Positions 26,376-58,726 of a stretch of 64,000 nucleotides of DNA are shown here, one piece after another (position 1 is the first letter of the stretch; each line of letters begins with the position of its first letter). Location of the stretch: positions 98,148,001 to 98,212,000 of the forward strand of contig CM059431.1 in NCBI GenBank assembly GCA_030390025.1, read 5' to 3'. The position numbers were made by a program, and so were the translations under genes. The notes under the pieces were generated by a model, which was not told the DNA's origin, did no database searches, and saw nothing but the letters and a program-made list of their open reading frames with translations. Origin of the DNA: Squalus acanthias (taxonomy: Eukaryota).

Positions 26376-26430
26376 AGCTAGAACTGTGTCAGCCAATAGG
26401 ACCGGGATGAGTAATTGCAATAATAGACAC
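26376..26430 (-). CDS. 55-bp coding exon of a signal peptide, (W)[18 protein letters not shown]; resembles an even-type collagen IV gene (COL4A2/A6-like)
   Basis: Minus strand ttttatttcacAG|GTGTCT...CTAGCT|GTAAGT; phase 2 in, phase 0 out; hydrophobic with a V-L-A end. From recall, human COL4A2 exon 3 is 55 bp with the same phases and ends SVLA. Confidence 0.65.
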
Positions 26431-26642
26431 CTGTGAAATAAAAGTACATGTTTAAACTTCCATTTACAGAGACCTCGCGCATCATAAAGGAACGTCAGAC
26501 ACCCTGCACCAGCTTCCTGCCCCTTCAGAAAATGGACTCCTCCTTTTCCTGCAACTCGGCAGCTTCACCTATCTTTTGTTTGGTGGGATGGACGGCATTT
26601 ACCTGGAGGAGCTGCAACCAAACATTAAACGTTCCAGCCGCC

Positions 26643-27155
26643 TTCCTTCTTCTTAGGCAGTCCCTCGGAACCGAGGATGACTTGCTTCCACACTAAACAT
26701 GAGTTCTCAGGTGACTGATGAGTCCAATGTGGGACCTACAGTCTCTGTCACAGGTGGGGCAGACGGTGGTCGAAGGGGCGGGTGGGTGGGGTGCTTGGGT
26801 TGACGTGCGCTGTTTTCGCTGTTTGCGCCTGCCTTCCGCTTGCTCCCGGCGAAGAGACTCGGGGTGTTCGCCGCCTTCCCGGATGCTTCTCCTCCACTTT
26901 GTGCGGTCTTGGGCCAGGGATTCCCAGGTGTCGGTGGGGATGTTGCACTTTTTCAAGGAGGCTTTGAGGGTGTCCTTGCAGCGTTTCCTCTGCCCACCTG
27001 GGGTTCTCTTGCCGTGTCGGAGCTCCGAGTAGAGCGCTTGTTTTGGGAGTCTCGTATCGGGCATGCGGACAATGTGACCCGTCCATCGGAGCTGATCGAG
27101 TGTGGTCAAAGCTTCAATATTGGGGATGTTGGCCTGAGCGAGAACACTGACGTTA
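26643..27155 (-). mobile_element. RTE-clade LINE 3' fragment
   Basis: QLRWTGHIVRMPDTRLPKQALYSEL..GGQRKR.KDTLK and a C-terminal CPTC..HLRTH zinc finger; short (AAG)n tail. Confidence 0.9.
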
Positions 27156-27339
27156 GCCCCAAATGGAGAACAGGAATTCCCTCCCACAGTGGAACCAGAG
27201 CTGAATCTTCTCATTAGTTGCTGGGCTCGGGTAGGATCAGGAGTGAAGGAGAACGCAGGAGAGATGGGGAGAAAATAATCGGGAGAGGGAAGGGGAGGGA
27301 GAGGGGCAGGGAGCGTGGGGTCAGAGGCTGGGAGTGTGG

Positions 27340-27442
27340 GGTGGTTCAAGAAGGAGGCTCACCACCAGCTTCTCACAGGCAACTCGGGACGGGCAATAAA
27401 TGCGGCCTTGCCAGCGACGCCCACATCCCCAGAATGAATTAA
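27340..27442 (+). mobile_element. Short 3' tail of the LINE family at 42034-43128
   Basis: ggttcaagaaggaggctcaccacc...ccttgccagcgacgcccacatccc. Confidence 0.75.
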
Positions 27443-27569
27443 AGAATACAATTCCCATAGTGGGATGATTTTGATTGTGGCTTTTCAGATTCTCAGACAG
27501 TTTTCCTGCTATTTTTCTTGTTTTTTTGTTTGTTGAGGTCACAACAAGGATGATCGGAAAAAAACTTAC

Positions 27570-27694
27570 CACATGTTTTATTCTCTGGGAAATTTTCAGT
27601 GAATCAATTCGATGGTCCCTCCGATCACCGACTGGAGTCCAATGAGCTGACGCTTCAATTCCAGCTCAGTCCTGAACGAAATGCTTCACTAAAC
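27570..27694 (-). CDS. Exon with 5' UTR and start codon (coding part ATG TG, 27570-27574), in phase with exon 26376-26430
   Basis: Minus strand ttttattttctgacAG|GTTTAG...gaaTAAaacATGTG|GTAAGT; only ATG in the exon, A at -3, in-frame stop just upstream. Confidence 0.6.
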
Positions 27695-55292: not shown

Positions 55293-55294
55293 GG

Positions 55295-55449
55295 TGATGG
55301 CACGTGGTCAGAATGTCACGTGATCAGGCATAGCGTGATCAGTCATCACGTGGTCAACAATCACATGATCAGATGTCATGTGGTCAGATGTCACGTGGCC
55401 AAAATATCACATGATCAGATGTCACATGGTCAGAACATCATGTGATCAA
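55295..55449. repeat. Degenerate 15-16 bp tandem repeat rich in E-boxes
   Basis: About 10 units of gtcac(g/a)tg(a/g)tcagat; four CACGTG plus several CACATG/CATGTG. Confidence 0.7.
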
Positions 55450-57477
55450 TTCTCCAGGCATGCCTCCAATCAGAGTTGGCCCCCCAATCATCGGGCCTGT
55501 GCCAGTCTGTATTAATGAATGGATTTGTACACAATATCATTGGTCAATTCAGGTAACGACATGCGCATCTCATTAAACTCCATAAAGTGACAACATTTCC
55601 ATCAACAAGGTTCGAATCACATCACAGTGTCTGCAGAAAGAGAAGGGCCGATTTTAACCCGGGCGGGAATCGGGGGTGCGGGGACTGTAACGTGGGGGTG
55701 GGGAGGGGGGAATCCGTTCTGACCCCCCCCGAGAGCGTGAGGCCCAGGAGATCTTAAATCCCCCCCGGACCCTGACACTGACTCCCGCTCGAAACCTGCA
55801 GGAATGACATCAGCGCGGCCGGCGGGCGAGAGAGGGAGGTTTGGGGGGGGGGGCAGGGGTCAGGGCACCGGTGGGGACCCACGGAAACGGATCCTGTCAA
55901 GGTCAATGAGGAAAGTGGGGAGGGGGAAATCAGCAAAGATCACAATCGGGAGGAGACCATGGTTGCTTTGTGGGACAGGAGGAGCAGGAGCGAGGTCGCC
56001 ATTTAAATTAGGCCCCGCCCCCGCACCGCTGGGTCAAGATCCTTCCCCTGCCTGGTTTCAGGTAAGTTAAGTTAGTGGGGAGGGGGAGGGGGGCTGGAAT
56101 GCTGCACAAACCCCTCCCTCACCATATTAACCCCCCCCACCCGCACCCCACCCGCCCCCCACCCAGACGGGGGCGGAGGGGCTAAACTCAGGGCTAGAGA
56201 AAGTCGACAATGTGCGAGAAAGTTCCTGCTCTCCAATTGTATCGTGTTCCTCCAGCGCAAAGCACCAACGCCGGGAATTCCCTTGTGATCGGCTGGCGTA
56301 ACATCGGCGCAAGATCGGCGGAAGCCTCGCTTACGTGTGTATCCAGGGTTGGCGTCGATCTTCCGCCAAAGTTACGCCGGCCAATTGGTCAGCAACCCCC
56401 TCCCCCGAGGAAATTCGGGGCGATAATCTGAATCGGGAGTTAGAGGGGTAACTTTACAACGCGTCGCTCCCGGGTGAGCGTCACTGGATGGGAGCATCGG
56501 TGTAGAGTTGGCCCTGTACAGTCACCGTCCTTTCACCGACCTGCGCGCCCATCCAGCACCGCTCCGGAATGGGAGCGGAGGCCTTTGGAACTGTCAGACG
56601 TTACACTGGTAAAAATAACACAGCATTAATGTGTCGGAAATTTAGCTGCCAAAGAACCAAATTAGCAAAGATGCAACTCTGAAAATAAACACGAGATTTA
56701 ATGCGAATGATTCGTCTTCACTTTTAATTATCATTGAAACAAAATGATAGTTACAGAGGACTCTCAAATACTCGAAGATATTTAGATACAGATTGCTGAT
56801 TCTACGTTAGTCCCCTCCCCCCGGGAGATCCCATTCCCACTTGGGATGGGTGTGATGGGAACGCACCATACAGTCACATGGTCCTCACTGTCGCTGCACC
56901 AGGGAGATATTGCCCATCCCAGGCAGGTAAATGTCCCACAATCAGACCCAGCACCTCACTGCCTGAAGGGAAAGGGTCTGGGGAAATGCTCACATCCCAG
57001 GGCAGTGCCCACCATTCAATGCCCAACTCCTCCACTCCCCACACACACCCTCCATATCACGCACCCTGTGAGCTGACTGCCAGACACCTCACACAGCAAG
57101 TCCAACCTTCAGAGTCACATCAACTCAGTGAAGAACTGCTCGGAATATCTCCATCATTCAGCAGCTTGCTTTGGGACTTCCAGCAGTGTAACTGGGCTGT
57201 TTTACTGCTTGTCCTGGGATTGGTGAACTCCTCACCAGGAACATCACTGCCCTGAAGAGTGAGCTGGTGTGTGTGTGTTCTGTTCCAGACGGGTGGTCAG
57301 GGATCACAGCACAGTGATCATCTTTACTCAATGACTGCCGGTATGGAGTTACCTAAAGTCACTCCACCACCTAGAGAGTCAGTCTCAGCACCTGGCCCCG
57401 ACCCCTGGCAGCACCTCGCACTAACACACCGATCAACACTCGCACCCCCCAGTATAACTTCACTCAGCGTTACTCAC

Positions 57478-57552
57478 CGCTGCCTCCAAACTCCGAGTCT
57501 GGGCCAGGAGCAGGACGGCTGGGAGCAGCCAGGAGCACATCAAGTGAAACAT
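57478..57552 (-). CDS. Signal-peptide first coding exon, left-arm copy: MFHLMCSWLLPAVLLLAQTRSLEAA
   Basis: gccgATG...GAGGCAGCG|GTGAGT on the minus strand; phase 0 donor. Confidence 0.5.
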
Positions 57553-58651
57553 CGGCTAGACTCTTCCAGTGTCTGGACTTTACATTTGAAGCACTGATCC
57601 CAGCACGGAGACGGAGGAGATAGCTGGAGCCTCCCGCCTCTTCTGAGTCTTGCAACGGCTTTGCTGAAGTAAAGTTACAGAGTGGAGGCGTTCCTCAGTG
57701 TGTCGGAGCAGAAATTGCCAGTGCCTGGGAATCTGCTCTCTGTTCCCAGTTTACACGCTCCTCCCACCTCTCACTCCATCCAACAGGTCCCAGCCCTATT
57801 GCAGAGAGAGGACTCTAGCCTTAACCCTTTGGGGACTGGCTGCATTTTTAAACACTCACTTTAGACATTAGTCCACCCGGAAAATAACTGACTAGATTCT
57901 TTACTGTACTTTGGGAACCCTGAGCCTCATAAAGGATTAAAAAGACTGCACAAAAATGTCGAATATTTTAAGTCACATCATTGTAGATGGCAATCTCCTC
58001 ATGTTTGTAAATGTTTCTGTGTTGGAAGCGTTGGTGATTGACAATTGTACAAACTCTCTCGGTGACAAAGCGCTGATTCCTCAATCTGTAGAAATGTGCT
58101 TTCCCAATCCGTTCCGGAAAAGCTCTGGCCACTGGTTCAGTGCTTCCAGCCTATATATATATCGAGGAACTGGGCATCAGGAGCACAATATCAGACGAGG
58201 CAAATGTATATCTGTAACAAAATCAGTGGTGTAACATTTTCACCAGTGAGGACTTCTCGAAAAACCTGTGAAACGAGTGTTGAAAATTCCCAAAGTACAG
58301 TAAAGAATCTAGTCAGTTATTTTCCGGGTGGACTAATGTCTAAAGTGAGTGTTTAAAAATGCAGCCAGTCCCCAAAGGGTTAAGGCTAGAGTCCTCTCTC
58401 TGCAATAGGGCTGGGACCTGTTGGATGGAGTGAGAGGTGGGAGGAGCGTGTAAACTGGGAACAGAGAGCAGATTCCCAGGCACTGGCAATTTCTGCTCCG
58501 ACACACTGAGGAACGCCTCCACTCTGTAACTTTACTTCAGCAAAGCCGTTGCAAGACTCAGAAGAGGCGGGAGGCTCCAGCTATCTCCTCCGTCTCCATG
58601 CTGGGATCAGTGCTTCAAATGTAAAGTCCAGACACTGGAAGAGTCTAGCCG

Positions 58652-58726
58652 ATGTTTCACTTGATGTGCTCCTGGCTGCTCCCAGCCGTCCTGCTCCTGG
58701 CCCAGACTTGGAGTTTGGAGGCAGCG
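58652..58726 (+). CDS. Signal-peptide first coding exon MFHLMCSWLLPAVLLLAQTWSLEAA; resembles odd-type collagen IV exon 1 (COL4A5/A1-like)
   Basis: 25 codons with a hydrophobic core, ending GAG GCA GCG|GTGAGT (consensus donor, phase 0). From recall, human COL4A5 exon 1 ends EAA in phase 0 and the COL4A1 leader contains WLLLLPAALLL. Confidence 0.62.

Follow-up and report, generated by a model that had tools for sequence, protein, structure and literature searches.

The window analysed here, the whole stretch of 64,000 nucleotides from Squalus acanthias (G000:C7:98148001-98212000), carries the 5' ends of two shark genes arranged head to head, the orthologue of COL4A1 on the plus strand and that of COL4A2 on the minus strand, with the exon architecture described below; we put the probability of this reading at about 95%. 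COL4A1 and COL4A2 form the ubiquitous collagen IV pair of basement membranes, a universal scaffold, and the divergent promoter of the alpha1 and alpha2 genes is a textbook case of co-regulation. The window is flanked by NC1 (Pfam C4) exons belonging to two divergently oriented collagen IV genes, those of an alpha2-like gene (three exons at C7:97.892-97.895 Mb on the minus strand, ...CNGARGTCHYFANKYSFWL...RCQVCMKNL) and those of an alpha1-like gene (five exons at C7:98.489-98.495 Mb on the plus strand, ...CHGRGTCNYYANSYSFWL), which bears out the collagen IV pair proposed in a first-pass annotation of the bare sequence. The names of the two genes follow from transcript-derived dogfish proteins (PMC12141075, supplement file 1): in the sequences given there, the NC1 ends of the COL4A1-like and the COL4A2-like protein are identical to the plus-strand and minus-strand NC1 read from C7, respectively. 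Both shark genes are already published and, as such, ordinary rather than new. Our result maps the exons of their 5' transcript ends to the genome; established in it are the sequences of the exons with their phases, the NC1 ends on either side, the orthology of the genes and the way in which the mature proteins start. The main thing demonstrated is that the exon-level call of the first-pass annotation was correct: its three leader features (the 55-nt exon, the ATGTG and the plus-strand exon) are in place (table 1), and the 32-kb extent that it gave for the pair holds for the coding leader exons (26376-58726).

Table 1. Features of the COL4A1-COL4A2 intergenic region and leader exons, in window coordinates. 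A slash in a sequence marks an exon border.
Feature	Position	Strand	Details
COL4A2 55-nt leader exon	26376..26430	-	phase 2 to 0, tttatttcacag/GTGTC...CTAGCT/gtaagt
COL4A2 start codon + TG	27570..27574	-	ATGTG/gtaagt
Satellite	27903..41517	.	13.6 kb, 24-nt unit, 568 copies
CpG island	55501..56600	.	GC 0.59, CpG o/e 0.75, 70 CpG
Left arm of inverted repeat	56806..57917	-	duplicates the leader exon with 365 nt before its ATG and 0.67 kb of the intron
Inverted duplicate of COL4A1 leader exon	57478..57552	-	MFHLMCSWLLPAVLLLAQTRSLEAA/gtgagt, points towards COL4A2
Spacer between arms	57918..58286	.	369 nt, TATATATATA run
Right arm of inverted repeat	58287..59396	+	contains the COL4A1 leader exon in the orientation of its gene
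COL4A1 leader exon, minimum 5' UTR (putative)	58478..58651	+	mirror of 231-nt contig at 57496-57726
COL4A1 leader exon, coding part	58652..58726	+	ATG...GCAGCG/gtgagt, phase 0, MFHLMCSWLLPAVLLLAQTWSLEAA

In COL4A1, a single exon comprises the 5' UTR and the whole leader, which has 25 residues and ends in EAA, and is spliced over approximately 195 kb to a short 7S exon. This second exon (60 nt, ACHGCTSSSKCDCSGVKGEK, C7:98401540-98401599, plus strand, phase 0 at both borders, cag/GCC...AAG/gtaaga) is found outside the window, 194.8 kb downstream of the leader exon, and has the C..C...CDC.G.KG pattern that had been predicted for it. The published dogfish COL4A1-like peptide starts with MEAAACHGCTSSSKCDCSGVKGEK / ..EAAACHGCTSSSKCDCSGVKGEK (PMC12141075, supplement file 1), and its EAA/ACHGC... 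join agrees with the C7 genome exons; as printed there, the peptide is truncated on the 5' side and lacks the leader before EAA, confirming only these three residues of the plus-strand leader.

The leader of COL4A2 is split, with ATG TG separated from the 55-nt exon by a 1.1-kb intron, which contains retroelement remains; a 29-kb intron then leads to an 81-nt 7S exon, after which comes another intron, of more than 97 kb. From 26431 to 64000 the minus strand has ATGTG/GT once (1/1) and ATGTG/GC four times, and the 55-nt exon together with the preceding TG translates to 19 residues, a W and 18 more. The published COL4A2-like protein indeed starts with MW, and 19 of its 20 leader residues, in the sequence given in PMC12141075, are those of the genome peptide, residue 17 being T in the genome and K in print. 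The published dogfish proteins confirm the even-chain leader nearly in full and the odd-chain leader only in its EAA, and the proposed division into an even chain with a split leader and an odd chain with one phase-0 leader exon is upheld. Also found, 2.6 kb to the left of the window and separated from the 55-nt exon by an intron of 29.0 kb, is the Cys-rich 7S exon predicted to have about 81 bp and the pattern PC.G.DCS..C.C.PEKG: it encodes 27 residues (C7:98145321-98145401, L027:7321-7401, minus strand), is in phase 0 at both borders (ctgcag/GGT...AGA/gtgagt), and is matched over its whole length by the COL4A2-like protein of PMC12141075. In that source, the COL4A1-like and COL4A2-like proteins continue directly over both leader-7S joins. 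The MW start of the published protein led us to reject other candidates for the COL4A2 ATG exon near the inverted repeat, including MGNISLVQR+CA at 56917-56889. Protein searches with the 81-nt exon and its in-frame flanks returned four and one unnamed bird fragments, and no shark transcript.

The distinctness of the 55-nt exon was gauged by scanning 61 kb of the minus strand, from the plus-strand exon to the next collagen exon. Only eight open segments there end in phase 0 at a GTRAGT donor and follow an AG acceptor in which 11 or more of 17 positions are pyrimidines, and the 55-nt exon ranks first among them in hydrophobicity. Of the 12,374 open segments (AG..GT, 40-120 nt), 7 pass a hydrophobic leader rule, and among the seven the 55-nt exon alone combines a GTAAGT donor with an acceptor rich in pyrimidines. 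Gly-X-Y exons of at least six triplets are absent from the window and from up to 100 kb on either side, in keeping with the claim that long introns follow the leaders; the two matches in the 264 kb scanned are both of low complexity and non-collagen. The long interrupted Gly-X-Y domain between 7S and NC1 is known here from the published proteins whose two ends match the C7 locus (PMC12141075, in the sequences given there).

The shark locus resembles COL4A1-COL4A2 of human and mouse in its divergent arrangement, in the single phase-0 leader exon of the odd chain, in the split leader of the even chain, whose second coding piece has 55 nt and ends in VLA, in the Cys-rich 7S exon that comes next, in the position of NC1 at the far ends and in the ING1-type gene beyond COL4A2. 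It differs in that COL4A2 begins with a coding piece of no more than ATG TG, in its huge introns (195 kb, 29 kb and more than 97 kb), in the inverted duplication of the COL4A1 leader exon, and in an IRS gene 6 Mb off, the last matching an inversion reported for cartilaginous fish (PMC12141075, in the passages on synteny). A further difference concerns the space between the genes: the shark ATG exons are 31 kb apart, whereas the shared human promoter is given as 127 bp (PMC8063738, in the passage cited). Neither an exon map of the shark genes nor the inverted repeat nor the distance between the genes is given in the passages of PMC12141075 used here.

The two arms of the inverted repeat can be aligned over 1110 nt with seven mismatches and one 2-nt indel (1.1 kb, 99.4%), and the duplicate leader has QTR where the plus-strand leader exon has QTW. 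The first-pass annotation had missed that its plus-strand exon belongs to this repeat and has a second copy on the minus strand, and the inverted duplication, the CpG island and the satellite are all absent from its finding. The satellite separates the two ATG exons and lies directly upstream of that of COL4A2. The CpG island, which is single-copy as a whole and only 0.2 kb away from the inverted repeat, contains a CCAATTGG motif and boxes of the GC and CCCTCCCC types (in summary, GC, CCAAT and CTC-type boxes); it is the candidate shared promoter.

Contigs from public sequencing runs were placed on 49776-59435 only, where the parts that they leave uncovered (the spacer, the CpG island and most of the intron copies) are uninformative. 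Contigs from three runs of two studies (X1, X2 and X3) cover 57476-57726. One of them (run X1, record 8), 231 nt long, matches 57496-57726 with zero letter differences, and the 5' UTR extent listed for COL4A1 in table 1 was transferred from this opposite arm by the mirror rule of the inverted repeat. In two runs the matched part ends at 57476/57477, i.e. at the donor, and the record continues with 24 or 109 unlike letters, which is a weak hint in favour of the gene starts described here. Small depths were recorded in bins 55572-55893 (X3, 2.86) and 56538-56859 (X2, 4.81; X1, 0.57). In one RNA-like and one DNA-like run the contigs break exactly beside the arm-specific site 57495/58709, so both variants of this site appear to be present in those two runs; this would fit two transcribed copies, and heterozygosity explains it equally well. 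A run search with 58520-58726 matched ten runs, eight of them guessed as 'RNA?' and none listed as RNA, and was counted neither for nor against expression.

As for the start of the COL4A2 transcript, we think that a non-coding first exon upstream is the most likely arrangement, the transcript starts themselves being inferred. Such an exon would probably lie near the CpG island and the inverted repeat (55.5-58.3 kb) and be spliced over about 28-30 kb to the acceptor at 27695/27694, with a promoter shared with or adjacent to that of COL4A1, so that the usual shared divergent promoter would be kept. An acceptor-like site is indeed present at 27696-27695 (ttttattttctgacag/G), and its use would turn the COL4A2 ATG exon into a 125-nt internal exon (27570-27694). 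The proximity of the single-copy CpG island also speaks for this arrangement, as does the human promoter, which is named with the same element types (PMC8063738, in the passage cited). Against it, neither such an exon nor the joint has been seen, and splice-site likeness and motif counts are weak indications. Somewhat less probable, yet a serious contender, is a start of COL4A2 just upstream of ATGTG (27575-27902), which would mean that the shared promoter has been lost and the pair split by 31 kb of satellite and other repeats. This was the first-pass annotation's own reading; it would agree with the human gene, whose first exon is the ATG exon, and no minus-strand upstream exon has been identified at the locus. 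However, the 330 nt upstream of the ATG exon are not CpG-rich and abut the satellite, the strong acceptor-like site stands 125 nt before the donor, and COL4 pairs are reported to have a short common divergent promoter (passages including that in PMC8063738).

A more elaborate scenario, which we regard as speculative and rather unlikely, is that the shark promoter was remodelled: the inverted duplication would have created a mirrored version of the promoter and leader exon of COL4A1 that faces COL4A2, the satellite and other arrays would have pushed the coding start of COL4A2 31 kb off, and either the mirror copy or the CpG island would now drive COL4A2 through a non-coding exon, or the two genes would have become uncoupled. 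If the starts are truly 31 kb apart, or if a mirrored promoter copy is in use, the locus would offer a natural experiment on whether balanced 2:1 expression of the chains needs close promoter sharing.

The pair cannot be named from sequence likeness alone. That it is COL4A5-COL4A6 is an alternative that we find very improbable. The best named matches of the last NC1 exon of the minus-strand gene are to collagen alpha-6(IV) (82%, against 76-81% for alpha-2), and the human alpha6 N-terminus (..KSY..) and alpha5 Cys spacing resemble the C7 exons. In a neighbour-joining tree of 29 NC1 sequences the minus-strand gene is basal to the alpha6 group with 19% support, in a weak branching, and both shark even chains fall outside an alpha2 clade (58%); PDB contains no alpha6, so PDB searches cannot separate alpha2 from alpha6. 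However, a second pair (C6:146.97-147.63 Mb) has identical Cys spacing, with a 60-nt ACHGC...CDCSG.KGEK exon and a 78-nt ..PC....R exon, both in phase 0, as well as a published leader ending in ..SEAA/ACHGC (PMC12141075, in the sequence given there), and a spacing common to the C6 and C7 pairs must be ancestral. The C6 pair differs from the C7 pair in its chromosome, in an adjacent IRS gene on the opposite strand and in the nearby ATG4 paralogue and TMEM164, and it is to C6 sequences that the published names COL4A5-like and COL4A6-like belong, the COL4A6 leader being longer than the even-chain leader on C7 (PMC12141075, in the sequences given there). None of the 29 matches to PCGG.DC is on C7, where the gene has PCNG.

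Synteny, judged against the human gene order, likewise names the C7 pair COL4A1-COL4A2: an ING gene is located at C7:97.74 Mb, 146 kb beyond the even gene, a LIG4-type ORF of 939 aa at C7:89.75 Mb, and IRS is distal on C7 and within 0.1-0.2 Mb of the pairs on C6 and C5. The linkage with IRS genes that the first-pass annotation wanted examined agrees with this naming and with the shark pattern in the synteny passages of PMC12141075. A genome search for NAXD (Carb_kinase) gave no match among four candidates.

The first-pass annotation had offered two origins for the pair, and the divergent orthologue proved right, the pair being COL4A1-COL4A2. Its other idea, a fourth pair born of genome duplication, which cartilaginous fish would have kept and bony vertebrates lost, rested on its remark that the leaders fit no human pair cleanly and can safely be set aside: the genome search for C4, in which only the best candidates are scored and counts are thus lower bounds, as they are for 7S, gave 24 matches among 41 scored candidates that resolve into six genes in three divergent pairs and none extra, the 7S patterns match only the C6 and C7 pairs among the COL4 loci, and six COL4 genes are reported in shark (PMC12141075, in the passages cited).

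The window lies inside one of three divergent pairs of collagen IV genes, and this pair is, with a probability that we put at about 0.95, COL4A1 on the plus strand and COL4A2 on the minus strand. When the entire assembly was searched with the Pfam C4 (NC1 domain) profile, at least 24 matches were returned among the 41 best candidates scored, and all C4 matches found fall into six clusters, which make up three divergent pairs on the contigs C5, C6 and C7; the window sits between the two clusters of the C7 pair. The first-pass annotation is borne out in its reading of the locus as a collagen IV pair and in the orientation it inferred (of the two C7 genes, the one on the minus strand is alpha2-like and the one on the plus strand alpha1-like); its speculation about a fourth pair is alone refuted, by the six clusters in three pairs here together with the six shark COL4 genes in three pairs reported in the accessible part of PMC12141075.

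Likeness of sequence on its own leaves the identity of the pair ambiguous: the best named matches of the NC1 exon of the C7 minus gene are to alpha-6(IV), at 82% identity, versus alpha-2, at 76-81%, and a neighbour-joining tree of 29 NC1 sequences does not resolve the groupings. We assign COL4A1 and COL4A2 to the window because synteny decides the matter. Set against the human gene order, the C7 locus has an ING-family gene 146 kb past its even-chain gene and a ligase IV-type single-exon ORF (939 aa) at C7:89.75 Mb, and an ATG4 paralog and TMEM164 are among the neighbours of the C6 pair. The C5 pair has a long-ORF IRS gene at a distance of 0.2 Mb, the C6 pair one at 0.1 Mb (opposite strand) and the C7 pair one at 6 Mb, a placement equivalent to the pattern described in the accessible part of PMC12141075, in which an inversion in cartilaginous fishes shifts the IRS gene away from COL4A1/COL4A2. 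A fourth long-ORF IRS-domain gene (912 aa), beyond the three linked to COL4 genes, is located on an unplaced contig (C2997:27559-27840).

The three features described in the first-pass annotation, the 55-nt exon, the ATGTG/gtaagt start and the plus-strand ATG exon, are all present exactly where it placed them in this repeat-rich genome of 3.7 Gb. Chance occurrence was gauged on 61 kb of the minus strand, from the plus exon to the next collagen exon. Open segments there with a GTRAGT donor, an AG acceptor rich in pyrimidines and an end in phase 0 number only eight, and the 55-nt exon is the most hydrophobic of them; with splice quality unfiltered, 7 of 12,374 open AG..GT segments are leader-like, and strong sites occur only in the 55-nt exon. 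ATGTG/GT has a single occurrence on the minus strand upstream of it. The next exons that had been predicted were recovered on both strands by pattern searches, in phases compatible with the leader exons. That of COL4A1 reads cag/GCC TGC CAT GGA TGT ... AAA GGA GAA AAG/gtaaga (translation ACHGCTSSSKCDCSGVKGEK); that of COL4A2 (ctgcag/GGT GGA AAG ... GCA AGA/gtgagt) codes for 27 residues and is separated from the 55-nt exon by 29.0 kb, lying 2.6 kb outside the window on its left. A stricter PCGG pattern missed the C7 gene, since this gene has PCNG. A sequence scan found no Gly-X-Y exons within 100 kb of the window on either side.

Both genes encode secreted chains, whose leaders would serve as signal peptides cleaved around ..VLA/GG and ..EAA/A. 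The 7S domain, through which four protomers are cross-linked, starts with the Cys-rich exons; it is by their NC1 ends that chains are selected and joined. The shark COL4A1 and COL4A2 genes have been described before: dogfish peptides from a transcriptome are given in supplement file 1 of PMC12141075 (J Biol Chem 2025;301:108496). As far as this source is accessible, the predicted 20-residue leader peptide (the translation of ATGTG joined to the 55-nt exon) equals the start of the published COL4A2-like protein at 19 of 20 residues, the 81-nt exon following, and the NC1 end of that protein is identical to that of the C7 minus gene. The COL4A1-like protein, truncated so that the remainder of the leader is missing, begins MEAAACHGCTSSSKCDCSGVKGEKGAAG..., with the EAA/ACHGC join visible, and its NC1 is identical to that of the C7 plus gene. 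The C6 exons match the published COL4A5-like (..NSEAAACHGCSTGSDCDCSGAKGEK) and COL4A6-like proteins.

Features in and around the window (positions with prefix C refer to contigs)
Feature	Position	Strand	Remarks
COL4A2 55-nt leader exon	26376-26430	minus	pyrimidine-rich acceptor, GTAAGT donor
COL4A2 start ATGTG/gtaagt	27574-27570	minus	
COL4A2 next exon, 81 nt	C7:98145321-98145401	minus	phase 0/0
COL4A1 ATG leader exon	58652-58726	plus	ends ...GAG GCA GCG/gtgagt, phase 0
COL4A1 exon 2, 60 nt	C7:98401540-98401599	plus	phase 0/0; 194.8 kb downstream
C4 clusters, C7 pair	97.892-97.895 Mb; 98.489-98.495 Mb	minus; plus	Pfam C4
C4 clusters, C6 pair	146.970-146.973 Mb; 147.622-147.630 Mb	minus; plus	Pfam C4
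C4 clusters, C5 pair	22.998-23.001 Mb; 23.365-23.371 Mb	minus; plus	Pfam C4
Inverted repeat, right arm	58287-59396	plus	holds COL4A1 leader exon
Inverted repeat, left arm	57917-56806	minus	second leader exon, QTR replacing QTW
CpG island	55501-56600		just left of inverted repeat; GC 0.59, CpG o/e 0.75, 70 CpG
X1 contig	57496-57726		whole 231-nt contig, no differing letters
X2 contig	57477-57695		part of 243-nt record
X3 contig	57476-57704		part of 338-nt record
Satellite, 24-nt unit (TACTGCCCCTTACACACTCAGAGT)	27903-41517		13.6 kb, 568 copies, 89% matches
33-nt unit arrays (GCAGTACTGAGGGAGCGC.GCACTGTCGGAGGG)	20707-20934, 21335-22117, 22417-22525, 25270-26243, 47825-49775, 53680-54239	both
Tandem array, 16-nt unit	1-1801
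Tandem array, 37-nt unit	12752-13633
Tandem array, 51-nt unit	19471-19788
Tandem array, 16-nt unit	59436-59657
Tandem array, 20-nt unit	60718-62123
Tandem array, 47-nt unit	63806-64000		continues past window end
RVT_1 ORFs	9675-10322, 16993-17418, 17302-18003	plus, minus, plus	16993-17418 just below Pfam cut-off, two above
GIY-YIG ORFs (three)	7287-8486, 23625-24596, 44923-45729	plus	just below Pfam cut-off
Gag-like zinc-knuckle ORF	51696-53072	plus	covered by public RNA-like contigs
Open frame, 221 aa	26693-27358	minus	zinc-finger matches only, below Pfam cut-offs

What the present analysis adds is modest, namely an inverted duplicate of the COL4A1 leader exon, a neighbouring CpG island and a satellite-filled gap; the first-pass annotation had overlooked these, as well as an acceptor-like site. 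The duplication takes in the leader exon and 365 nt upstream of it, and the stretch is found at only these two places in the assembly. The arms (1110 nt aligned, seven mismatches, one 2-nt indel) are separated by a 369-nt spacer, and the sites that distinguish them in the leader exon and UTR are 57495/58709 and 57606/58598.

Contigs of four public runs (X1, X2, X3 and X10) were aligned on positions 49776-59435; none of the runs listed as containing the plus leader stretch is annotated as RNA, and X1-X3 are RNA-like. These three small runs, from two studies, have contigs that cover the copied leader exon. For X2 and X3, the alignment ends at the predicted donor and the remaining record is unlike the genome there, which hints weakly at use of this donor; both run through the arm-specific sites with one differing letter each. 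Contigs of X1 and of the low-depth DNA-like run X10 end beside site 57495, a pattern that two coexisting variants would give, and one contig of X10 stops precisely at 57917, where the arm has its inner boundary. The ends at 57917 and 57495 fit a real duplication, though not conclusively.

The CpG island is a candidate shared promoter. It carries GC boxes, CCCTCCCC-type boxes and a palindromic CCAATTGG motif, and is single-copy as a whole (of 39 further matches listed, 37 involve its first ~90 nt and two are short and partial); the other CpG-rich spots in the window coincide with tandem arrays or retroelement ORFs. Very deep low-complexity contigs of X10 cover a poly-C/G tract in it (~56131-56164). 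Upstream of the COL4A2 ATG there is an acceptor-like ttttattttctgacag/G at 27695/27694, and the ATG exon contains no other ATG; it may therefore be an internal exon of 125 nt, spliced to a non-coding first exon that would come from the region of the island and the repeat. We lean slightly towards such a distal first exon. A separate COL4A2 start adjoining the ATG is the less probable arrangement, if still a serious one. The human genes share a promoter of 127 bp with CCAAT and GC elements (accessible parts of PMC8063738; PMC4936713), whereas the shark coding starts lie 31 kb apart.

The 24-nt satellite in this gap, whose GC skew is strong and constant (about -0.47), sets in 330 nt upstream of the COL4A2 ATG. 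Within the aligned stretch, the 33-nt arrays attract pile-ups of RNA-like contigs, whose summed depths reach tens of thousands at 53318-54283. The RVT_1, GIY-YIG and gag-like ORFs are remnants of retroelements; the three GIY-YIG ORFs, which coincide with CpG-rich spots, could be Penelope-like elements. The 221-aa frame, which judging from its sequence resembles the 3' part of a LINE ORF2, is located together with an adjoining SINE-like stretch in the 1.1-kb intron that separates the COL4A2 ATG exon from the 55-nt exon.
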